Origin: Lachnospiraceae bacterium
Lineage (GTDB): Bacteria; Bacillota; Clostridia; Lachnospirales; Lachnospiraceae
Assembly: GCA_014804755.1 (NCBI GenBank)
Contig: JAAUZE010000008.1
Coordinates: 100,109-164,108, forward strand
DNA length: 64,000 bases
Reading direction: 5' to 3'
In this document: one piece after another, positions 11,240 through 21,559 of the stretch
Position numbering within the stretch: the first letter of the stretch is position 1
Layout of the letters: each line of letters begins with the position of its first letter
The notes under the pieces: generated by a model
Database searches by the model: none
What the model was told of the DNA's origin: nothing
Seen by the model: the letters and a program-made list of their open reading frames with translations, nothing else
Program-made: the position numbers and the translations under genes

Positions 11240-11998
11240 ATGAATAGAGATCACTTTAAAACCATTTGGAAACAGGAAGAGGAAATAGCGCATATTCACG
11301 GTTGGGATTTTTCGCATATTCATGGGAGATACGAAGAAGAAAATGACTTGCCGTGGGATTATGAAAAGATCGTCAGAAGTCACTTAAAAAGCCACTTGGA
11401 TATACTGGATTATGATACGGGCGGCGGCGAGCTTTTACTATCCTTACATCACCCATATGACAAAACATCCGCAACGGAAGGGTATCCGCCCAATGTGGAT
11501 TTGTGTAAGGAAACACTACTTCCGTTGGGGATAAATTTCAAGGAATGCAATGATCCGACAAACATCCCATTTGCCGATGAGGCATTTGACTTAATGATCA
11601 ATCGGCATGGTGATTTTGACGCAAGAGAAATATTTCGATTACTGCGGCAGGATGGTGTGTTTATCACAGAACAGGTGGGCGAAGATAATGATAGGGATTT
11701 AGTGGAAATGGTATTGCCCGGAACAGACAAGCCGTTTCCTGATCTGAATCTTGCAAAGCAGCGGAAGAACTTTGAAGAGGCAGGTTTTCAGATTATGCAG
11801 GCGGAAGAAGCCTACCGTCCGATCACGTTCTATGACGTAGGCGCATTCGTTTGGTTTGCACATATCATTGAATGGGAATTCCCTGATTTTTCGGTGGATC
11901 GGTGTTTTGAGCGGCTGTTGAAAATGCAGGAGATGATTGAAAAAGACGGAAAAGTGGAAGGAACTATTCATCGTTATTTGATCGTTGCAAAAAAATAA
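11240..11998 (+). CDS. SAM-dependent methyltransferase-like protein
   Basis: 'LDYDTGGGELL' motif I-like segment. Confidence 0.55.
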   Translation: MNRDHFKTIWKQEEEIAHIHGWDFSHIHGRYEEENDLPWDYEKIVRSHLKSHLDILDYDTGGGELLLSLHHPYDKTSATEGYPPNVDLCKETLLPLGINFKECNDPTNIPFADEAFDLMINRHGDFDAREIFRLLRQDGVFITEQVGEDNDRDLVEMVLPGTDKPFPDLNLAKQRKNFEEAGFQIMQAEEAYRPITFYDVGAFVWFAHIIEWEFPDFSVDRCFERLLKMQEMIEKDGKVEGTIHRYLIVAKK

Positions 11999-12002
11999 GG
12001 AA

Positions 12003-12040
12003 ATGAGCCGTTGCCCGCCGTGGGTGGCGGCTCATTTTGG
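12003..12040 (+). terminator. rho-independent terminator
   Basis: Stem ATGAGCCG...CGGCTCAT followed by TTTTGG. Confidence 0.55.
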
Positions 12041-12130
12041 CAGTTTGATGAAAGATTAAGAAGCAAAGGTCAAAAATATTTTTTTTTGAAAAACGAGAGA
12101 AAGTTTTGCGGTTACAAATCGCAAAACGCA

Positions 12131-12159
12131 TTGATTTTGAGAGAGAATAAGGGTATACT
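12131..12159 (+). promoter_or_regulatory. sigma-A type promoter (TTGATT-17-TATACT)
   Basis: Sequence match only; lies upstream of the ATPase gene. Confidence 0.4.
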
Positions 12160-12181
12160 TTTCTTGGAGAGGGGTGATTAC

Positions 12182-13393
12182 ATGATAGATAGGCCAATGT
12201 ATATTGATAAAGTGATGGCGTATACGGATGCGCCTTTCGTTAAAATTCTTACGGGTGTCCGTCGATGCGGTAAGTCTACCATACTTAAAATGATCATGGA
12301 GAGGCTGCGCGATGAAAGAGCCATACCGGAAAGTCAGATCGTTAGTTATCGGTTCGATTCGATGGAATATGAAGACATGACTGCAAAGCAGATGTATGCA
12401 GAATTGAAAAGCAGACTCAGCACGAACGGGAGAACTTACTTTTTTTTGGATGAAATACAGGAAGTTTCGGGTTGGGAAAAGGTTGTCAATTCTTTGGTAT
12501 CGGATTTTGATGTGGATTTGTATGTTACCGGGTCAAATTCTAAAATGATGTCTTCAGAGATATCTACGTATCTAACGGGAAGATATATTGCTTTTCGAAT
12601 TTACACACTGTCTTTTCAGGAGTATTTGACATTCAAAGGTCAGCATACTCTGCTAAAAGATACGAGAACGGAACTGGCAGATTATATTCGGCGTGGTGGT
12701 TTTCCGGCCGTTCATCTTCAAGACTATAGTTTGGATGAAATAGATACGATTGTTCGCGACATCTATAATTCCACGATTTTTTCAGATATTGTAAGGCGGA
12801 ATCAGGTTCGCAAGATTGACCAATTAGAGCGCGTTGTGAAATATACATTCCATAATGTAGGAAATACATTCTCAGCAAAATCAATTTCAGACTATTTGAA
12901 GGCGGAGCGCAGGTCTTTGGATAATGAGACGGTATACAGTTATTTGGAGAAACTGGAAAAGGCTTATCTGCTACATCGTTGCTCACGTTATGATTTGCGG
13001 GGCAAGGAAATATTGAAAACACAGGAGAAATTTTATTTGGCAGATACGTCGCTTCGCTATAGTGTTTTGGGATATCAGGCTAATATGACAGCATCTAGTC
13101 TTGAAAATATCGTCTATTTGGAATTATGCCGCCGTGGATATACGGTATATATCGGAAAGACAGACGATGGGGAAGTGGACTTTGTCGCAGTTCGCCAGAA
13201 TGAGAAAGTTTACGTTCAGGTTACGCAGAAGATTGATTCGGAAAAGACAGAGGAGCGGGAATATAAACGGCTGTTGGAAATTCGGGACAATTATCCGAAA
13301 TATGTGTTGCGGACAGATGAATTTGCCGAGGGTAATTATGATGGAATTAAGACGATGCATGTGGCGGATTTTTTGTTAAGTCAGGAATACTAA
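12182..13393 (+). CDS. AAA-family ATPase (DUF4143-type)
   Basis: Walker A 'GVRRCGKST'. SD GGAGAGGGG precedes the ATG at 12182; the longer ORF would run through the upstream terminator. Confidence 0.8.
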   Translation: MIDRPMYIDKVMAYTDAPFVKILTGVRRCGKSTILKMIMERLRDERAIPESQIVSYRFDSMEYEDMTAKQMYAELKSRLSTNGRTYFFLDEIQEVSGWEKVVNSLVSDFDVDLYVTGSNSKMMSSEISTYLTGRYIAFRIYTLSFQEYLTFKGQHTLLKDTRTELADYIRRGGFPAVHLQDYSLDEIDTIVRDIYNSTIFSDIVRRNQVRKIDQLERVVKYTFHNVGNTFSAKSISDYLKAERRSLDNETVYSYLEKLEKAYLLHRCSRYDLRGKEILKTQEKFYLADTSLRYSVLGYQANMTASSLENIVYLELCRRGYTVYIGKTDDGEVDFVAVRQNEKVYVQVTQKIDSEKTEEREYKRLLEIRDNYPKYVLRTDEFAEGNYDGIKTMHVADFLLSQEY

Positions 13394-13401
13394 TGCCTTG
13401 A

Positions 13402-14316
13402 ATGTGTAAAGGGATCATGTGGTTGGAGGAACTTATGAAAATCGGAGAAGTCAGTCTGCTGACAAATGATATAGCGGAAAGGAACATCCAATTGGACAGC
13501 AAAGACCTTATCCTATCAAAAGTCCATAAGCTGATGGCGGCATATCGGGACGGCCTGCTCGGCGGCGAAAGGCTGAAAGAATGCAATTCTTTCAACCACG
13601 AATCTGTACCGCATAGCACAAATTCACAGGCTGGAAAAGGGGCATGGATCATCAAGATGCCGGAACATGAGAACCCCGGTTTGGACAGGGCCTCGAAAGA
13701 GAACTACTTGTATTTTACGTTGCCGATGGCGTTGAATTATCAAAGAAATTCGTATGTTTTGTGGGAGTGCGCCAATCGGTTATACAAGAATGTGCCGGAG
13801 ATTTTTGACTGCGGACATGTATTGCGGATGGCGGAAGCCGATTTGAAAGATTTGCTGGTTCAATATAAGGTCGCATTGCAGCCGAATAAGCAGTCGGTCA
13901 TTTGGAAAACGCTCTGCGCCACGTTCCACGACAAATACGGTGGCGATGTACGGAGCTTTTTCTCGGCGATGAATTATGAAGTATCTGCCATAAAAGAATC
14001 CATAAGCAGGAATAAAAAAGCATTTCCTTATTTGGGCGGCAGTAAAATATGTAATTACTGGCTGTATGTGATGGAGCAGTACACCGATGCAAAATTTGTT
14101 GACCGCGAACATATTACTGTGGCGCCGGATACGCATGTCATCCAGGCGAGTGAGAAGCTGGGCGTGATCAGTGCGGAAGAGGCAAAAAGAGCAGATGTTC
14201 AGCAAATCGTTGCGGATAGATGGAATGAGCTGCTGCGCGGTACGGAATATGTTCCCATTGATATTCATACGCCGATGTGGCTGTGGAGCAGGGGGAAATT
14301 TAAAACAATATTGTAA
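13402..14316 (+). CDS. hypothetical protein with HhH-GPD-like signatures
   Basis: 'FPYLGGSKICNYWL' resembles an HhH hairpin and 'VAPDTHVIQASEKLGV' resembles the catalytic Asp region of endonuclease III-like glycosylases. Start could be 13417 or 13435. Confidence 0.45.
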   Translation: MCKGIMWLEELMKIGEVSLLTNDIAERNIQLDSKDLILSKVHKLMAAYRDGLLGGERLKECNSFNHESVPHSTNSQAGKGAWIIKMPEHENPGLDRASKENYLYFTLPMALNYQRNSYVLWECANRLYKNVPEIFDCGHVLRMAEADLKDLLVQYKVALQPNKQSVIWKTLCATFHDKYGGDVRSFFSAMNYEVSAIKESISRNKKAFPYLGGSKICNYWLYVMEQYTDAKFVDREHITVAPDTHVIQASEKLGVISAEEAKRADVQQIVADRWNELLRGTEYVPIDIHTPMWLWSRGKFKTIL

Positions 14317-14332
14317 AGCAAAAGCTAAACAA

Positions 14333-14365
14333 TTGCTTTACAAATACAGAACCGCGTGATAGAAT
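14333..14365 (+). promoter_or_regulatory. promoter TTGCTT-18-TGaTAGAAT (extended -10)
   Basis: Sequence match upstream of the toxin-antitoxin pair. Confidence 0.4.
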
Positions 14366-14393
14366 GGAAGGGTAAAAAGAAGGAGCGGTAATT

Positions 14394-14654
14394 ATGGCAC
14401 AGGCAATGATTAATTTTCGGATGGATGAAGAATTAAAAAAGAATATGGAAGAAATTTGCAAAGATTTAGGATTAAGCATGACAACCGCATTTACTATTTT
14501 TGCAAAAAAAATGACAAGAGAAAAAAGAATTCCGTTTGATGTATCGTTAGATCCGTTTTATTCAGAAAGTAATATGTCATATTTGAAAAAGGTAGTAGAC
14601 GATATTGAATCAGGAAAATCGGTTCTTTCTGAGCATGAATTACTCGAGGATTAA
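14394..14654 (+). CDS. type II antitoxin, RelB/DinJ family
   Basis: 'MAQAMINFRMDEELKK...FTIFAKKM' ribbon-helix-helix pattern; lies 3 nt upstream of the toxin gene. Confidence 0.7.
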   Translation: MAQAMINFRMDEELKKNMEEICKDLGLSMTTAFTIFAKKMTREKRIPFDVSLDPFYSESNMSYLKKVVDDIESGKSVLSEHELLED

Positions 14655-14657
14655 TGC

Positions 14658-14921
14658 ATGAAGATACTTTGGGAGGAGCGCGCCTGGGAAGAATACTTAG
14701 AGTGGCAGATACAAGACAAGAAAACATTAAAAAGGATTAATGCTCTCATCAAAGAGATACAAAGGAACTGCTACGAAGGGATTGGTAAGCCGGAACCATT
14801 AAAAAATAATTTAAGTGGGTGGTGGAGCAGGCGTATTGATGAAGTAAATCGAATTGTTTATAAAGAAAAAGATGGAGCGGTTATTATAGCATCATGCAAG
14901 GGACATTATGAGGATACATAA
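14658..14921 (+). CDS. yoeB: type II toxin YoeB/Txe family
   Basis: 'WEEYLEWQ...KPEPLKNNLSGWWSRRIDEVNRIVY' closely matches the YoeB consensus. Confidence 0.85.
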   Translation: MKILWEERAWEEYLEWQIQDKKTLKRINALIKEIQRNCYEGIGKPEPLKNNLSGWWSRRIDEVNRIVYKEKDGAVIIASCKGHYEDT

Positions 14922-14953
14922 TGTCCCTTGTTGCGGTATGAAGATCATTTGGG

Positions 14954-15820
14954 TTAGAAATTGTTGTGCCGCAAATAGCATCGAAACGCTTCCGCAACAT
15001 ATTCCGCAGAACCGGTGCCGTTTTTGGTGTCAAAAACGGATCTCAAATAGTCAGTGGAATAGAGATCGATGATCAGGCGGCAATAATTGGCCTGATCGCC
15101 GACCAATTCAGATGGGGCGTTTCCCTGTGCGCGGGCGATGATTTCCTGAACGATTTGCTGCACCTCATCTGAGGAAACGTCCTTTTCTTTATTGGCGGCC
15201 AATTTCACAAAAAGATCCTGCTTCATTTCTTCGGGGATTTCGGAAACCCATTTTTCCATGATCTCTGAAAAATGAGCCAGATTTTCTTTCATCGCCGCGG
15301 TATACGCTTCCATGCTGCCGAACTGTTTGATAGCAAGCTTTGCGACGTTCGGTTCGTCGTCCTTGATTTTTTGAATAAACAGATCATAATTCTCTACACT
15401 GCCCCAGTATTTGATCACCTCATTGGTATTGCGATTCTTGAACTCCTCCAACGCATGAATATAATCGGATAAGTCAAATTCCTTGAAACTCATACAGTTT
15501 TCTCCTTTCTCTAAACGGTCAAGGAGCTGTATCAGCCGGTCTGTGCGGTTGCGCTTTAACAGAAGCAGTTCTTTTTGCTTTTTGAAAGCAGCGATCCTGT
15601 CAAAATCGGGCTTCTCCAATATATCCCGGATATCCTTTAGCTTGAAACCTAATTCCTTGAAAAATAAGATCTGCTGTAATGTCTGTAACGCTTCATCATT
15701 GTACAGGCGGTAACCGGACGGCGTTGTTTCGCTTGGCTTGAGCAGTCCGATTTCGTCATAATACTGCAATGTGCGTACACTGACGTTGGTCAATTTCGCA
15801 ACTTGGCTTGTGGTCCGCAT
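14954..15820 (-). CDS. MerR-family regulator with C-terminal TipAS-like domain
   Basis: 'MRTTSQVAKLTNVSVRTLQYYDEIGLL' MerR helix-turn-helix. SD AAGGAG precedes the ATG at 15820. Confidence 0.8.
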   Translation of the reverse strand: MRTTSQVAKLTNVSVRTLQYYDEIGLLKPSETTPSGYRLYNDEALQTLQQILFFKELGFKLKDIRDILEKPDFDRIAAFKKQKELLLLKRNRTDRLIQLLDRLEKGENCMSFKEFDLSDYIHALEEFKNRNTNEVIKYWGSVENYDLFIQKIKDDEPNVAKLAIKQFGSMEAYTAAMKENLAHFSEIMEKWVSEIPEEMKQDLFVKLAANKEKDVSSDEVQQIVQEIIARAQGNAPSELVGDQANYCRLIIDLYSTDYLRSVFDTKNGTGSAEYVAEAFRCYLRHNNF

Positions 15821-15977
15821 GGGAATCAACTCCTTGCCGATCAGGATTGCGGAATGGTTTCGCAATCACTTGTGGGTTTATAGCCAATCAAAACAGGCTT
15901 AACATATCGTAGGAAGCAGGAAGGAACTGCCGGCCGGTATCATTACTGCTCTCCTGAAAAAAGAATACCGTATCACG

Positions 15978-16790
15978 TTACGTTGAAGTCAAGAGTTTTT
16001 TTGCCACAAAGAGAAAATGATTTGTCTTTCCAAGGTGCTCCGGTTTTTCACAATAAAAGAGGTGCAGTTTCAAATATTGCGCATATCCGGCATCATCAAG
16101 CTGATTGATTCGATCCTCCAATAATTCACTCATGCCGTCTGAGGCGATTTCGTGAATGATAGTAAGATCATTACGGGTGAGCATTTCACGACATTGATTT
16201 AGGTTAAAAAATACAAATGGGAAATTAACTGTTTTGAACGTTTCCCTATCATACTCACCGGTCAGAAGATAGTCCGGGTTATAGCCCCATTCCGTGTAGT
16301 GGAGCATGTCATTATTAATAAAAGCGACAAACAGGGTACCGTCTTTTTTCAACACTCGTTTCGCTTCCCTAATTGCTGTGTTCCGATCCTTTTCATCGTG
16401 CAAATGATAAAGCGGACCGAATAACAGGACAATATCAAACGTTTCATCGTCAAAATCGGATAGGTCGAGAGCGTTTCCCTGTCTGAGATCAATCGTAAGA
16501 CCGTCAGTTATCTTTTCACGGAAATCCGCCACGTTTTTATCCGCAAGTTCAACCGCATTCACGTGGTATCCCTTATTTGCAAAATAAAGACTGTACTCCC
16601 CGGCGCCTGCTCCGAGATCAAGAATTTTCATGCCCTGTTTTAGATATTTTTCAATATATGTGATCGTAGTCGTAAACTCAACTCTGGCTGCATTACTGCA
16701 GTTTAATCTGGATTTTTCATCAAAAAAATGGTAAACAGCATTCACGAGTTCCGCATCGTTCTTGATTTTTTTCAGTTCATTCAGATCCAT
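15978..16790 (-). CDS. class I SAM-dependent methyltransferase
   Basis: 'ILDLGAGAGEYSLYFA' motif I. Confidence 0.7.
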   Translation of the reverse strand: MDLNELKKIKNDAELVNAVYHFFDEKSRLNCSNAARVEFTTTITYIEKYLKQGMKILDLGAGAGEYSLYFANKGYHVNAVELADKNVADFREKITDGLTIDLRQGNALDLSDFDDETFDIVLLFGPLYHLHDEKDRNTAIREAKRVLKKDGTLFVAFINNDMLHYTEWGYNPDYLLTGEYDRETFKTVNFPFVFFNLNQCREMLTRNDLTIIHEIASDGMSELLEDRINQLDDAGYAQYLKLHLFYCEKPEHLGKTNHFLFVAKKLLTST

Positions 16791-16831
16791 TTTCGGTACC
16801 TATCTGAGTTGTTTTGGGGGTAATAGGAATG

Positions 16832-17248
16832 TTATTCTCTCCGAATAATCTTTCTCATACCGCAGCCGCAATATTCGTGCGGTATTTTTTTGAAACCGAG
16901 AGATTCGTAAAACGGTTCTTTTCCCGGCTCCGCAATGAGTTGAATACTTGACCTGCCGCCTGCGGGCGTGTGATCGGATACATAGGTTAACAGCATATTC
17001 AGAATGGTGGTGCCGATTTTTTGCTTTTGAAAATCAGGGCGCACGATGACATCCGCGATCAGATCATATTGTCCGTCGCCGATCAATCTGCCCATGGCGA
17101 TCGTTTCATTATGTTCAACCGCGGTTGCGATATACAGGCTGTTTCGGATCGCATTCTCTGATTGCTCCTTTGAAAAGTTGAGCCATCCGACACTTTCGCG
17201 CAGTTTCGCGTAGTCTTCATAAGATAAGGTATTTTCTTTGTATTCCAT
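16832..17248 (-). CDS. GNAT N-acetyltransferase
   Basis: GNAT motif A 'RPDFQKQKIGTTIL'. SD AAAGGATGA precedes the ATG at 17248. Confidence 0.7.
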   Translation of the reverse strand: MEYKENTLSYEDYAKLRESVGWLNFSKEQSENAIRNSLYIATAVEHNETIAMGRLIGDGQYDLIADVIVRPDFQKQKIGTTILNMLLTYVSDHTPAGGRSSIQLIAEPGKEPFYESLGFKKIPHEYCGCGMRKIIRRE

Positions 17249-17255
17249 GCTGTGT

Positions 17256-17516
17256 TCATCCTTTCCGATTATTCGGGGTGAAAAAGCCCCAGACACAATT
17301 GCTGAATTCTCCGGCGGCAAATGTATGCTGCTGACCATGAATCTTAGCAGTATAAATAGGAAACTTGTATTCCTGACCGTATAAGGGGTCATGAACCGTT
17401 GCGGATTCATGGGTCGGTTTCCATTTGTACTTAAATATATTGACGCCAAATAGGTTTGTATCTCCATCGACACCGGTTACTTCATGCTGCCATGCTTGTT
17501 CTTTCGGGGATTCCAT
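17256..17516 (-). CDS. hypothetical protein (86 aa)
   Basis: Good SD AGGAAAGGAA; ends 8 nt before the GNAT start. Confidence 0.4.
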   Translation of the reverse strand: MESPKEQAWQHEVTGVDGDTNLFGVNIFKYKWKPTHESATVHDPLYGQEYKFPIYTAKIHGQQHTFAAGEFSNCVWGFFTPNNRKG

Positions 17517-17713
17517 ATCGTCGGTTCCTTTCCTTGATAAGCCCTGTCAATCTGGTCTGTTTCATAAAATCATAGCATACTCGCGTTCATATTTCTATAA
17601 CAGTATTGATAAACTGGAATTTTCATGGTATTTGATCGTGAAAGAAATCAGATGGACAACCAGTGTGCGCAATTGCATAATGATTAAAAAACAAAAGAGG
17701 AGCGTGTCTGATT

Positions 17714-18640
17714 ATGAATACGTTACATTGTTGCATGAGGGAATATTTGGAATATTGTCATTATCGGAAGCGGTTGGATTCCAAGACATTGAAGGCTTAT
17801 CGTATTGACTTAAAACAGTATGAGGATTTTTGCGCCGGGGTATCTGATTGTTTTTCCCAAAATGCGGTGGACAATTTTATCACCTGTCTGCACAAACGGT
17901 ATAAGCCCAAAACGGTCAAGCGGAAGATCGCAAGCTTAAAAGCCTTTTTTCATTACATGGAATATAAAGAAATATTGCATGAAAATCCGTTCGTAAAGCT
18001 GGACGTCCGTTTTCGGGAAGCGAAGCTCTTGCCTAAGACCATTCCGTTTCATTCGATACAGGCATTTCTCTCTGCCATCTACACACAAAAAGAACAGGCA
18101 AAATCAGAATATCAGCGGCGATGCTGCGTCAGAGATATTGCCGTGATGGAGTTATTGTTTGCGACAGGAATGCGGATATCGGAGTTGTGTTCGTTAAAAC
18201 CCGCGGATATAGACCTTGAGAGCAATAACATTTTGATATACGGAAAAGGTGCAAAAGAGCGGATGATCCAGCTTGGTAATCGGGAGGTAATCGCTGCGTT
18301 GGTACAGTATCGGGAGACATTTAGAGAGGACATAGAGGTTTGCGGGTATTTTTTTGTGAATCGGTTACAGCATAAGCTATCCGATCAGTCGGTCCGTTTT
18401 ATGATCAATCACTATGCGGAGCTTGCGGGCATCACGCAGCACATCACGCCGCATATGTTCCGGCATTCTTTTGCCACACTTTTATTGGAGCAGGACGTCG
18501 ATATCCGCTATATTCAAAGGATGCTTGGGCACAGCTCCATTAGCACGACGGAGATTTATACGCATGTGTCGAACGCAAAGCAGAAGGATATTTTGGTGCG
18601 CAAGCATCCGAGGAATTTGATGGAGGTGAATGGAGGATAA
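17714..18640 (+). CDS. site-specific tyrosine recombinase (XerC/XerD-like)
   Basis: Catalytic 'HMFRHSFATLLL' and 'LGHSSISTTEIYTHV' (R..H-R-Y box). The stop codon lies inside the left inverted repeat. Confidence 0.85.
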   Translation: MNTLHCCMREYLEYCHYRKRLDSKTLKAYRIDLKQYEDFCAGVSDCFSQNAVDNFITCLHKRYKPKTVKRKIASLKAFFHYMEYKEILHENPFVKLDVRFREAKLLPKTIPFHSIQAFLSAIYTQKEQAKSEYQRRCCVRDIAVMELLFATGMRISELCSLKPADIDLESNNILIYGKGAKERMIQLGNREVIAALVQYRETFREDIEVCGYFFVNRLQHKLSDQSVRFMINHYAELAGITQHITPHMFRHSFATLLLEQDVDIRYIQRMLGHSSISTTEIYTHVSNAKQKDILVRKHPRNLMEVNGG

Positions 18641-18700
18641 TAAGAAATTATCTATTGAATAATGATTTGTATATTGTGAAAAACACCAATTTATCGGAGG
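18634..18700. repeat. IR-L: 67-bp inverted repeat AGGATAATAAGAAATTATCTATTGAATAATGATTTGTATATTGTGAAAAACACCAATTTATCGGAGG
   Basis: Exact reverse complement of 20587-20653. Ends in GGAGG, 5 nt before the ATG at 18706. Confidence 0.9.
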
Positions 18701-18705
18701 TTGAT

Positions 18706-19383
18706 ATGCATGTTCCTAAAGACGCTATTTTAATGCTATCTGGAGTATCATGTGTTGGAAAAACAACTGCAGCGTATGAGATAGTGAAGAATTATCCTGA
18801 ATTTAGAAGAGTAAGTGAATATGATTTGCTGAGAACAGTTGTGCGAACCGCATATGAATGTTTGGCTGAAGAAGCTTATATAGACAAGGATGAATTAATA
18901 AGTAAATATCATGCGTTGTTTGAGTCTATTACAAATAGCAATTTTGAAATTACCAAGTTACAGTCAGAACAATTACTTCCCTACGTTAAGGAGATAATTC
19001 TCAGACAACAAAGGCGACGGATACCAACTATAATAGAAGGTACTGGTATTATACCAAGCGCATATTTTCCTAATAATCAGCCATTAGCATGGTTATCAAA
19101 ACACGTAGTATTTATTAATCTATATATCTCTGACGAGGAAGATCACATTTCCCGAAGACAATCGCGTTCGGAGGAACGTGATTATCATGAATCGGCCAGT
19201 AAAACAGAAATAATTATTTCCCAATCTAGAGCAGGAAAAAATCAGTTATTACATATGCAGGCAATTAAGTTGCAGCAAAAATTTAAAAATGTGTTTAGCT
19301 TGGATGTTTCAAATTATACTCCAAGTCATATGGCAAGCAAAATAATGGAACTTGTTTTTGATTATTTTGATACCTATAACTAA
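18706..19383 (+). CDS. P-loop NTPase/kinase-like protein
   Basis: Walker A 'GVSCVGKTT'. ATG sits 5 nt after the IR-borne GGAGG. The track start 18655 is a TTG inside the repeat. Confidence 0.7.
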   Translation: MHVPKDAILMLSGVSCVGKTTAAYEIVKNYPEFRRVSEYDLLRTVVRTAYECLAEEAYIDKDELISKYHALFESITNSNFEITKLQSEQLLPYVKEIILRQQRRRIPTIIEGTGIIPSAYFPNNQPLAWLSKHVVFINLYISDEEDHISRRQSRSEERDYHESASKTEIIISQSRAGKNQLLHMQAIKLQQKFKNVFSLDVSNYTPSHMASKIMELVFDYFDTYN

Positions 19384-19392
19384 CAATATGAC

Positions 19393-20580
19393 TTATATAT
19401 CGTACAATTCGTTGTAGAGCTTTTCGGTCAAGGGAACCGCTTGTTCCCATACGTTTAAAAATGTATCATAAAGATGTTTTCCACGGCTTTGTATATCATT
19501 TTCGGAAATTTCTATTATTTCAAATGAAGAATTAGTAATTTGGAGAGGGTATCCTTCGCTGTCACATATTATTGGACTATAAAGCACGGCGTTATCACTT
19601 ATGATTATAGATTCTTTGCGTGGGCATTTGTATAGCCTAATCATTTCGCTTATAGGCAAGTGAAATCTATTTTGCATCCTAACAGCCGCTTCCAAACAGG
19701 TTTGTAAATCTGCTAAGAATCTCCTCTCTTTGTCTTTGCTTACAGCTTTGGTCATAGCTTCGCTTTTTGGATGTGGAAATAGACATTTAAAATCCACCCC
19801 ATTATTTATTCCTTCAATGGCTAGATACTTAAAAAAATCATCATTTTCACCTGTAAATATTTTTTTATTCCTTCTGCCATAAAACCATAAACGTTTGCCT
19901 TGATAATCAATTACATTTCGAATAAGTATTTTCGTAAGAACGCTGGTTGAAAATCCTTTATGAAAAAGAATATGCTCCTTGGTTATTTCAGGACTAACTA
20001 TTGTGAAATTTCCATGGTTGTCCTTCATAATTTGCTCAACCAAATCTCTGCAAGTGTCGGGAATCATTTGTTCACGTTGCAAGATCATTTTAACTTCTTT
20101 TATATATGCATTCCAGTGACTATTGAAGTTTTTGATATCTGTATTAGAATCTTTTGCCAATTCTTGTAAAAAACGTTTGAATTCCTCTCGTGATTTCTTA
20201 AAATTATCATTTTCATTATTTAAACGTATAGGGACATAACGATTTAGAGGTTTATCTACCCATGATGACCAATCGGGAATATGTTCAAATAATATTGGTA
20301 TAACTATACTTCCTCCTGGCTCTGCAAAATGTGCACCATACACTACACCTGCTTCATACATTAACCAAGGATTCTTAAAATTATCTGATGTTATACAAAC
20401 GATACATTTATCACTTCTCAAAAGATTATTATGTATTTCATTATCAACGGATGTCCCTTTATACATATCGGGAGAAAAAAACACTTCAATTTTATTTTCT
20501 AATGTATTCAAGATGAATTTTTTTGTTTCTAATGCTAATAATTTACTTTTATCTTTTGACCAGCTAATAAATATTTCCAC
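19393..20580 (-). CDS. TIR-domain protein with uncharacterised C-terminal domain
   Basis: 'IFISWSKDKS', 'EVFFSPD' and 'CIVCITSDNFKNPWLMYEAGVV' match bacterial TIR boxes, including the putative catalytic Glu. GTG start sits 6 nt after the IR-borne GGAGG. Confidence 0.7.
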   Translation of the reverse strand: MEIFISWSKDKSKLLALETKKFILNTLENKIEVFFSPDMYKGTSVDNEIHNNLLRSDKCIVCITSDNFKNPWLMYEAGVVYGAHFAEPGGSIVIPILFEHIPDWSSWVDKPLNRYVPIRLNNENDNFKKSREEFKRFLQELAKDSNTDIKNFNSHWNAYIKEVKMILQREQMIPDTCRDLVEQIMKDNHGNFTIVSPEITKEHILFHKGFSTSVLTKILIRNVIDYQGKRLWFYGRRNKKIFTGENDDFFKYLAIEGINNGVDFKCLFPHPKSEAMTKAVSKDKERRFLADLQTCLEAAVRMQNRFHLPISEMIRLYKCPRKESIIISDNAVLYSPIICDSEGYPLQITNSSFEIIEISENDIQSRGKHLYDTFLNVWEQAVPLTEKLYNELYDI

Positions 20581-20586
20581 TTTGTT

Positions 20587-20653
20587 CCTCCGATAAATTG
20601 GTGTTTTTCACAATATACAAATCATTATTCAATAGATAATTTCTTATTATCCT
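20587..20653. repeat. IR-R: reverse-complement copy of IR-L
   Basis: 100% identity over 67 bp to 18634-18700 in inverted orientation. Confidence 0.9.
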
Positions 20654-21025
20654 TTATCTTTAGAAACTACATCAACAGATACCGTTGAATACTTATTCGT
20701 CCAGCCCGTCAGACGACCTTTTATTACCCAATAACAAATGATCCAGTAGCATCCCATCTACCTAATTTTGTATTGTACTACACGATTGTGCGTATTTCAA
20801 CATCTTTCTCAAATATTCAGTAAATACATACAAGCATTCTTAACTGCTGTCTTTTGCCATGAATATTAAGTTTGCTAATCTCGCCGCTTTACACTATCCA
20901 AGATTTATGAGAAAATGGTTCTGAATTAAGTCAAAACAGTTGAATAAAGTTGCGCAAAGCCCAACTTGCCAATATATACCCATTAACACAGTCTCCGTTG
21001 CTGGAGTATGCGAAAGGAGTCCATC

Positions 21026-21559
21026 ATGTTCTACACCCTCAAAAACGGAAAATCAGTCACTATCAGAAAACCAATCACCAAGGACGCGCAGGACATCGTC
21101 TCCATCATTTCCACCGCAGATGTGGAGACGTTGTTTTTGGCGCGTAATCCGGGCGAGTTCCGCACGACCGCGGAGCGAGAAGAAGCGGTCATTGAAGGCG
21201 TCTTAGCCGATGATGACAGCACATGGTTTGTGGCAGAATACGAGGGCAGGCTGGTAGGTCAATGCTCTGTGGGACTTGTGAGGCGGTATCAGAGATATCG
21301 GCATAGAGCTGAGGTTGCGTTTGTGATCCTGAAAGATTATCAAGACTTAGGAATCGGTGGGAAGATGATGGAGGAATGCATCAAGTGGTGCAGGGAGAAA
21401 GAAGTCACGCAGATCGAACTGGATGTGGTCACAGCCAATCAAAAAGCGCTTTCCATGTATTTGGGCTTTGGATTTGAAGTGACAGGGACCTTGCCGAATG
21501 CATTGCGCTATATGGACGGGACATACGCAGACGAATATAAAATGGTAAAGCGTCTGTAG
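21026..21559 (+). CDS. GNAT N-acetyltransferase
   Basis: 'ILKDYQDLGIGGKMM' motif A. SD AAAGGAG. Confidence 0.75.
   Translation: MFYTLKNGKSVTIRKPITKDAQDIVSIISTADVETLFLARNPGEFRTTAEREEAVIEGVLADDDSTWFVAEYEGRLVGQCSVGLVRRYQRYRHRAEVAFVILKDYQDLGIGGKMMEECIKWCREKEVTQIELDVVTANQKALSMYLGFGFEVTGTLPNALRYMDGTYADEYKMVKRL

Follow-up and report, generated by a model that had tools for sequence, protein, structure and literature searches.

Here, we identify a perfect inverted repeat of 67 nucleotides (nt) as the likely ends of an invertible two-gene cassette in the genome of a Lachnospiraceae bacterium. The repeat lies in a stretch of 64,000 nt of contig JAAUZE010000008.1 (the whole stretch is referred to here as the window), where it brackets two convergent genes next to a gene for an Xer-type tyrosine recombinase. 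With moderate confidence, we propose that inversion of this cassette swaps the outside promoters that its two genes face, and that the sites at its ends also serve to dock whole cassettes. Related loci apparently form a widespread and undescribed family of flippable, swappable defense cassettes in gut Lachnospiraceae.

The main features of the locus, in window coordinates, are as follows.

17653..17681, plus strand: P_int, promoter-like site of the recombinase gene, TGGACA-17-CATAAT, from a consensus scan
17714..18640, plus strand: Xer-type tyrosine recombinase of 308 amino acids, with its TAA stop codon inside the left repeat arm
18634..18700: IR-L, left arm of the 67-nt repeat, from an inverted-repeat search
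18635..18652: predicted left recombination core, dif-like, GGATAAT-AAGAA-ATTATC, holding the recombinase stop codon; placed by the motif and by the breakpoints of relatives
18665..18705, plus strand: predicted cassette-borne leader of gene A, with the Shine-Dalgarno (SD) sequence GGAGG at 18696-18700; identical to the leader of gene B up to 18700
18706..19383, plus strand: gene A, P-loop protein of 225 amino acids with a nucleoside-monophosphate (NMP) kinase fold, from a structure model and a Walker A motif
19393..20580, minus strand: gene B, protein of 395 amino acids with a GTG start codon, an N-terminal TIR domain and an uncharacterized C-terminal alpha/beta domain
20587..20653: IR-R, right arm of the repeat, with the gene B SD sequence at 20587-20591 (minus strand) and the right core at 20635-20652
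20654..20771, minus strand: spacer of 118 nt between P_R and IR-R, the would-be 5' leader part of a P_R transcript; not present in the syntenic relative L006 (pairwise alignment)
20800..20772, minus strand: P_R, promoter-like site directed into the cassette, TTGAAA-17-TACAAT, scoring 10/12 in the scan

The two arms are 100% complementary, are separated by 1886 nt, and form the sole inverted repeat of at least 30 nt within 12 kb across the window. An earlier note on this DNA placed the recombinase stop codon inside the left arm, and the TAA at 18638-18640 indeed lies five bases into IR-L. The recombinase gene overlaps the repeat with only its final two sense codons and its stop codon, and the genes that would flip are complete. 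The same note described CGGAGG at both repeat ends, 5 and 6 nt before the start codons, and this is what the sequence reads: in IR-L, the terminal CGGAGG (18695-18700) is followed by TTGAT and the ATG of gene A at 18706, and in the reverse complement of IR-R, the terminal CGGAGG (20592-20587) is followed by AACAAA and the GTG of gene B at 20580. Genes A and B face each other tail to tail across a gap of 9 nt, and in relatives the corresponding genes often overlap. The window thus contains what characterizes an inversion system, namely a recombinase gene beside a segment that has inverted repeats at its ends.

The recombinase matches the Pfam families Phage_integrase (PF00589, 8e-42) and the N-terminal SAM-like domain (PF02899, 1.5e-8). 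The motifs GMR, KGAKER, HMFRHSFA and LGHSSISTTEIYTH are readable in its translation, which accordingly has the R-K-H-R-H-Y residues of tyrosine recombinases, and its closest solved structure is XerD (1a0p). The NCBIfam models for XerD and XerC match with E values of ~1e-70. Because these scores are below the equivalog cut-offs (246.6 vs. 329.6 bits for XerD and 238.7 vs. 335.2 bits for XerC), we regard the protein as Xer-like rather than as a housekeeping Xer recombinase.

Searching one genome per species with this recombinase as the query gave 80 related loci, almost all from Lachnospiraceae, with protein identities of 75-97%. These loci have a conserved order, in which a promoter and the Xer-like recombinase gene are followed by a dif-like site over the stop codon of that gene, the cassette, the inverted site, and then usually an inward near-consensus promoter. 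In 61/80 loci, the heptamer GGATAAT contains the stop codon, and the full core, GGATAAT-N5-RTTAT, is present in 54/80. In 25 loci with enough downstream DNA, an inverted counterpart of the arm that overlaps the stop codon lies 1.8-6.4 kb downstream, with exact arms of 20-166 nt. What the arms have in common across the family is their outer 18-31 nt with GGATAAT-N5-ATTATC, a dif-like pseudo-palindrome, in agreement with an Xer-type enzyme. The DNA enclosed by the arms nearly always comprises two convergent gene units with abutting or overlapping 3' ends. As expected if assemblies break at the repeat, 27/80 contigs end no more than 130 nt from the recombinase stop codon. In the window, the core motif matches at the two arms only, plus at one site with one mismatch, against a chance expectation of 0.21. 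The latter site, GGATAATTCTTCACTATC at 18780-18797 on the minus strand, is located inside gene A, 80 nt from IR-L; it is probably a chance match, although it could be a secondary site. We also considered transposon ends or the ends of a miniature inverted-repeat transposable element and rejected them, because the position of the repeat is tied to the recombinase stop codon in the 61 loci and the window has no other long inverted repeat. In two loci (L026:10220-10333 and L040:6191-6332), the intact recombinase gene is followed ~2 kb downstream by a further copy of its 3' end in direct repeat; L026 has a disrupted first core, with open reading frames (ORFs) of 356 and 206 amino acids between the 3'-end copies.

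Invertibility of the segment, also proposed in the earlier note, is borne out by homologous cassettes that occur in both orientations between the same flanks. An exact look-up of the TIR and kinase proteins across assemblies revealed opposite orientations between the same flanks, with an identical TIR protein, in three species. First, the cassette in L106/L109 is reversed relative to L107/L108, with breakpoints at the 21-nt sequence AAGGATAATTCTTTATTATCC, reading AAGGATAAT-TCTTT-ATTATCC. Second, L096/L097 are reversed relative to L098/L099, with the 21-nt breakpoint repeat AATA[A/G]C-TATAA-ATTATT. Third, L124 is reversed relative to L125/L130, with breakpoints at the 19-nt sequence AAAATAACGATGTATTATT, reading AATAAC-GATGT-ATTATT (all by pairwise BLAST). 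Of the four species that were sampled on several contigs, three thus have both orientations. Moreover, L012 and L027 carry the cassette type of the window in the opposite orientation, and five of ~seven recurrent cassette types occur in both orientations. A flipped cassette in the window would join 18617-18633 through the repeat to AACAAAGTGGAAAT.

Breakpoint repeats of only 19-21 nt indicate site-specific rather than homologous recombination. It is, therefore, very improbable that RecA-dependent homologous recombination between the 67-nt arms accounts for inversion and that the neighboring recombinase is an unrelated integrase. Perfect identity over 67 nt, as in the window, suffices for low-frequency RecA-dependent inversion. 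However, the repeats at which relatives invert have only 19-21 nt and correspond to the conserved dif-like motif, and the recombinase stop codon is embedded in this motif in 61/80 loci. Based on this overlap and on the location of the breakpoints at the core, we infer that the adjacent recombinase performs the inversion, acting at the two ends of the cassette.

The conserved and variable parts of the arm suggest a division of labor within the repeat. The outer 18-31 nt would be the dif-like recombination site, the outer half-site of which would also supply the final codons of the recombinase gene, including its stop codon. The inner 36 nt would be the cassette's own 5' leader, ending in the SD sequence and present in two identical copies, one per gene. 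With strand exchange in the outer core (18635-18652 and its mirror), each gene would keep its own leader and ribosome-binding site. The suggestion in the earlier note that the genes borrow their SD sequence from the repeat, hence, does not hold up: with the crossover in the outer core, the inner 36 nt with the SD sequence would travel with the gene. The extension of the repeat to the SD sequence is confined to the window, L012 and L086; in these, the arms are identical within a genome and differ at many positions between genomes, arguing for continuing homogenization or selection. Many other cassettes have repeats of ~23 nt and unrelated leaders, so that an SD sequence in the repeat is not a rule in the family. 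More distant TIR/kinase cassettes have the SD sequence immediately next to the core (ATTATT-GGGAGG), which suggests that the inner end of the window repeat (AAAAAC-ACCAA-TTTATC-GGAGG) may be a decayed second site.

That the inner 36 nt are cassette-specific and kept identical on both sides would also fit a repeat that is a duplicated promoter-plus-leader unit, in which case each gene would have its own promoter in the repeat or leader and orientation would be irrelevant. We consider this improbable. TTGAAT (18654-18659) and TATATT (18670-18675) are readable in the arm, and a 9/12 site using GATAAT of the core as the -10 element was found in the scan on the IR-R side only. However, TTGAAT and TATATT are spaced by only 10 nt, and no plus-strand site of at least 9/12 lies within IR-L. 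Furthermore, many relatives have their start codon 20-60 nt from a repeat of ~23 nt, leaving no room for a promoter, and in L073 the start codon follows 17 nt after the equivalent TTGAAT.

We suggest instead that the cassette, in which promoters are not evident, is fed with transcription inward from both sides by the conserved platform around it. The input from the left would be the recombinase promoter, with read-through over the 65-nt gap between the recombinase stop codon and gene A; the input from the right would be the promoter in the noncoding flank. On the left, T[AGT]GACA-N16-18-[CT]ATAAT is present no more than 90 nt upstream of the recombinase gene in 73/80 loci, regardless of the sequence further upstream. 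On the right, 14/28 loci have an inward site of at least 10/12 no more than 70 nt from IR-R, compared to 14/848 (1.65%) random windows from the same loci, and this site is usually TTGAAA or TTGAAT-17-TATAAT. P_R of the window aligns with TTGAAA-17-TATAAT of L006, which directly abuts IR-R there. P_R is located in the 370-bp region right of IR-R that the earlier note had singled out; this region (20654-21025) contains no credible ORF, and the GNAT gene that follows, from 21026, has the equivalent start in the syntenic L006. With inward promoters on both sides, an outside promoter would be directed at each gene whichever way the cassette lies, and a flip would swap the promoters. The earlier expectation of a promoter outside the invertible DNA is supported to the extent that promoter-like elements lie outside and that the leaders are too short for obvious internal ones; it falls short in that these elements are found on both sides rather than on one. 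No match to a regulatory RNA or riboswitch family was obtained in Rfam at E ≤ 1 across 17400-21200, and neither the putative P_R leader (z = -0.34) nor the junction of the convergent genes (z = -1.5) folds better than shuffled sequences.

No terminator was seen in the 65-nt gap or between genes A and B, making antisense interference likely and antisense read-through between the two genes plausible. Inversion would, accordingly for a cassette fed from both sides, change the pairing of promoters and genes as well as which gene receives antisense read-through. The outcome would be an altered ratio of the two products rather than one gene on and the other off.

The two genes of the cassette appear to belong together. 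The gene A protein has the Walker A motif GVSCVGKT and weak matches to Pfam AAA_33/AAA_18; its AlphaFold model (pLDDT 94) has CMP, TMP and adenylate kinases as the top folds in the PDB. Its homologs form 95 clusters, most of them on cassette-sized contigs, and are mostly of 222-227 amino acids, which backs the start codon. The gene B protein matches Pfam TIR_2 (1.7e-8) and, over the TIR part only, the PADLOC model TIR-TM (2.7e-16), and TIR folds are the top PDB matches of its model (pLDDT 84). Its homologs (94 clusters, many on contigs of ~1.9-2.05 kb) have 391-406 amino acids and are conserved from residue 1, with F4, S6, W7 and S8 invariant, which backs the GTG start. The distributions of the TIR and kinase homologs match, and the two genes are always found together. 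For dozens of these homologs, the longest contig is 1.9-2.05 kb, corresponding to the cassette plus k-mer overhangs. Such contigs suggest that public short-read assemblies routinely break at the repeats, thereby hiding the platform from surveys that find defense genes by their context.

In relatives, the cargo is typical of conflict systems and includes TIR, SIR2, SIR2-STALD (ThsA), TIR-TPR, STAND NTPases and pentapeptide-repeat proteins; further cargo comprises ATP-grasp/radical-SAM enzymes, glycosyltransferases including "GT4-conflict", polyprenyl synthetase and a methyltransferase. The sister cassettes L084 and L068 encode ThsA (E = 6.5e-101) and a ThsB-like TIR protein on opposite arms. 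These two are Thoeris systems; we rejected this assignment for the window, which has no ThsA match and pairs a TIR protein with an NMP-kinase-like protein. The matching distributions of the TIR and kinase genes and the Thoeris sister cassettes indicate that the two arms function together as a single system. We suggest that the cassette of the window is probably a two-gene antiphage module of a TIR protein and an NMP-kinase-like protein.

Several observations weigh against our proposal or limit its reach. P_int and P_R are consensus matches only, from which we infer promoter activity. Half of the related loci lack a recognizable P_R beside IR-R, and some, such as L012, instead have a gene that reads into the cassette. 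P_R of the window is 118 nt away from IR-R, and a weak terminator-like hairpin lies in between (20688..20672, minus strand). In the well-sampled species P0007, 10/10 long contigs have one orientation, indicating that flipping can be rare or strongly biased. The organism of the window is itself recorded in only one orientation. The locus is present in only two assemblies: the first has it on a long contig in the orientation of the window, and in the second, the assembly stops precisely at the repeat, leaving one contig with the flank and another, of 1946 bp, with the cassette; this break is uninformative because the 67-nt repeat exceeds the assembler k-mer. Finally, the L106 lineage has a strong intrinsic terminator after the recombinase gene. 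In that lineage, the recombinase-proximal gene may be silent, giving a one-sided on/off logic. The subfamily of the window differs from the L106 lineage in having the stop codon inside the core and no terminator.

The L106 terminator (L106:4936-5030, minus strand) reads CCTTCTGTACA-CAATT-TGTACAGAAGG followed by TTTTTGCTTTT and sits between the recombinase stop codon and the core. The gene reading into the L012 cassette is an ORF on the far flank for a thymidylate-synthase-like protein of 334 amino acids (L012:9952-10956, minus strand). It ends in ...GRKGVNKG-stop inside IR-R, mirroring the C-terminus of the recombinase (VNKG-stop) that is encoded by the other arm, and its flank is partly common to L083 and L060. 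The idea that the 118-nt spacer of the window is a remnant of the 3' end of this gene was dropped because the resemblance is too weak to use.

One-sided drive of the kind seen in the L106 lineage, where a terminator insulates one side, bears on an either/or switch, in which a single outside promoter acting through the recombinase gene would express the IR-L-proximal gene while the other gene would be silent and transcribed in antisense only. The drive in that lineage comes from the other flank, though. In the window, 65 nt with no terminator separate the recombinase stop codon from gene A, the convergent genes have no terminator between them, and both leaders are identical, all as such a switch would have it. 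By contrast, a second inward promoter on the far flank is strongly enriched in the family and present in the window, genes A and B are always co-inherited, and the sister cassettes place thsA and thsB of Thoeris, which needs both together, on opposite arms. We, therefore, consider a switch with a single outside promoter unlikely. The same observations, i.e., P_int in 73/80 loci, P_R in 14/28, the constant association of the two genes and the split of thsA and thsB between arms, argue against the strictly mutually exclusive expression that the earlier note had predicted.

With the proposed swapping of outside promoters, the sites at the cassette ends would double as the docking point for replacement of whole cassettes. 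The window, L006 and L007/L008 have a common left flank at 90-95% identity, and for L006 the right flank is common as well. These loci diverge from the core spacer onward, right after GGATAAT (AAGAA, TTGAG and TCCTG). The cargo of L006 is a different cassette; the contigs of L007/L008 end in the repeat, and their cargo is unseen. In addition, an empty and an occupied site were found between flanks that are 91-93% identical. In L018 (5535-5660), a lone perfect palindrome, AACAAAGGATAAT-ATCGG-ATTATCCTTTGTT, follows right after the recombinase gene. In L010 (7470-12640), a cassette of 5029 bp lies between AACAAAGGATAAT-ACCAG-ATTATCGG... and its mirror image. The far-side promoter is in the common flank of this pair. 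L017, L022, L040 and L058 look like more empty or near-empty sites. L124 (814-4897) has two invertible cassettes in tandem beside one recombinase gene, followed by DUF2971 and DUF4238 genes; the first has a 30-nt repeat, CTCAAAATAATAAGTAATTATTGGGAGGAA, and encodes a 105-amino acid ORF and a PNP_UDP-STALD protein, and the second is a TIR/kinase cassette.

Replacement of cassettes at a fixed locus in close relatives and the pair L018/L010 would also be expected if the main role of the repeats is to delimit a mobile module, as in the dif modules of Acinetobacter, and inversion is incidental and has no regulatory purpose. One cassette type also occurs in unrelated genomic contexts and in arrays, and the G+C content of the cassette is ~31-33% compared to 43-48% in the flanks. 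Yet both orientations are present in three of the four multi-contig species, and the conservation of inward promoters on both flanks suggests that it makes a difference which way the cassette lies. Purely incidental inversion is, in our view, possible but rather unlikely, and a mobile module overlaps with the proposed promoter-swapping cassette more than it excludes it.

Inverted identical sites, as used in engineering for recombinase-mediated cassette exchange, permit flipping and exchange but not simple excision. Replacement at one locus in the family would be the natural analog of this method, which is artificial. Core spacers vary from cassette to cassette, so it is not obvious that unlike cassettes could be exchanged by a simple double reciprocal crossover. 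We speculate that cassettes enter and exit by single-strand exchange resolved by replication or by recombination of folded single strands. Upstream of the platform, at ~11700-17520 of the window (L001:1-5803), genes for an AAA_14/DUF4143 ATPase, a RelB/YoeB toxin-antitoxin pair, a MerR regulator, a methyltransferase and a GNAT protein are present. Together with the GNAT gene at 21026 after the cassette, these genes place the platform in an accessory-gene neighborhood.

The platform has features of several known systems. The invertible G segment of phage Mu and the C segment of phage P1 carry alternative genes behind an outside promoter. A tyrosine recombinase, PsrA, performs the hsdS inversions of pneumococci (PMC7096588). 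Like these, the locus has a recombinase beside a segment bounded by inverted repeats, inward alternative units and a promoter outside. In those systems, however, the repeat lies within a gene and fuses a constant 5' part to alternative 3' parts, whereas here whole genes with their own leaders would flip without fusion and transcription would apparently come from both flanks. A serine-invertase segment of the Gin/Hin/Cin/Pin type was rejected, since the enzyme here is a tyrosine recombinase and the invertible segment contains whole genes. The fimS switch (FimB/FimE), the RecV switches of Clostridioides difficile and the invertons of Bacteroides likewise combine tyrosine recombinases with short inverted repeats and population heterogeneity, but in these the promoter flips and the genes are fixed, whereas in the proposed platform the genes flip and the promoters are fixed.

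The likeness to integrons lies in a tyrosine recombinase with an adjoining docking site, a platform promoter for promoterless exchangeable cassettes, and the occurrence of empty platforms and arrays. Unlike integrons, the loci have no attC hairpin sites; rather, they have inverted copies of one site and convergent units, are invertible, and have a recombinase gene that points toward the cassette and not away from it. We rejected the assignment to integrons based on the type of site and on the integron-integrase models, which score far below their cut-offs (TIGR02249, 112.4 vs. 265 bits; PRK15417, 80 vs. 435). Acinetobacter dif (pdif) modules are carried on gammaproteobacterial plasmids, use the host XerC/XerD and have 28-bp sites of 11-6-11 geometry (PMC6449649). 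As the loci described here appear to do, they consist of discrete accessory-gene modules between inversely oriented Xer-type sites, in varied contexts and in either orientation (PMC6449649), and they are the closest analog for this kind of module. The differences are the dedicated Xer-like recombinase, which abuts the site in all 80 loci and has its own stop codon inside the site, the inward promoters of the platform, the two convergent arms, and the Lachnospiraceae hosts. The inverted sites here are dif-like, but their geometry, GGATAAT-N5-ATTATC, is ~10-5-10.

Altogether, we tentatively propose, as a possibility that we rate just short of even, a gene-cassette platform of gut Lachnospiraceae that unites features of integrons, dif modules and invertons. 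In this platform, one half of the palindromic docking site would be formed by the 3' end of the recombinase gene, a pair of fixed promoters would face each other across this site, and promoterless two-armed conflict cassettes, flanked by the site in inverted copies, would flip, be exchanged and form arrays. Full-text literature searches gave no description of such a platform and returned only general work on invertons, dif modules and recombinases as defense markers; a 2025 preprint merely speculates that inversion by recombinases might regulate defense genes (PMC12632615).

If correct, the proposal would explain a class of assembly breaks, as cassette-sized contigs of ~2 kb recur in hundreds of metagenomes. 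The recombinase together with the core motif would be a simple bait for new defense systems, all the more so as many cargo proteins are without family assignment. A compact recombinase that inverts DNA at a site of ~21 bp in Bacillota could also serve as a genetic tool. A testable question is whether flipping an immune gene pair between a strong and a weak promoter balances protection against self-harm. If the platform works as we suggest, abundant gut Firmicutes would own a device to store, exchange and re-tune immune gene pairs.

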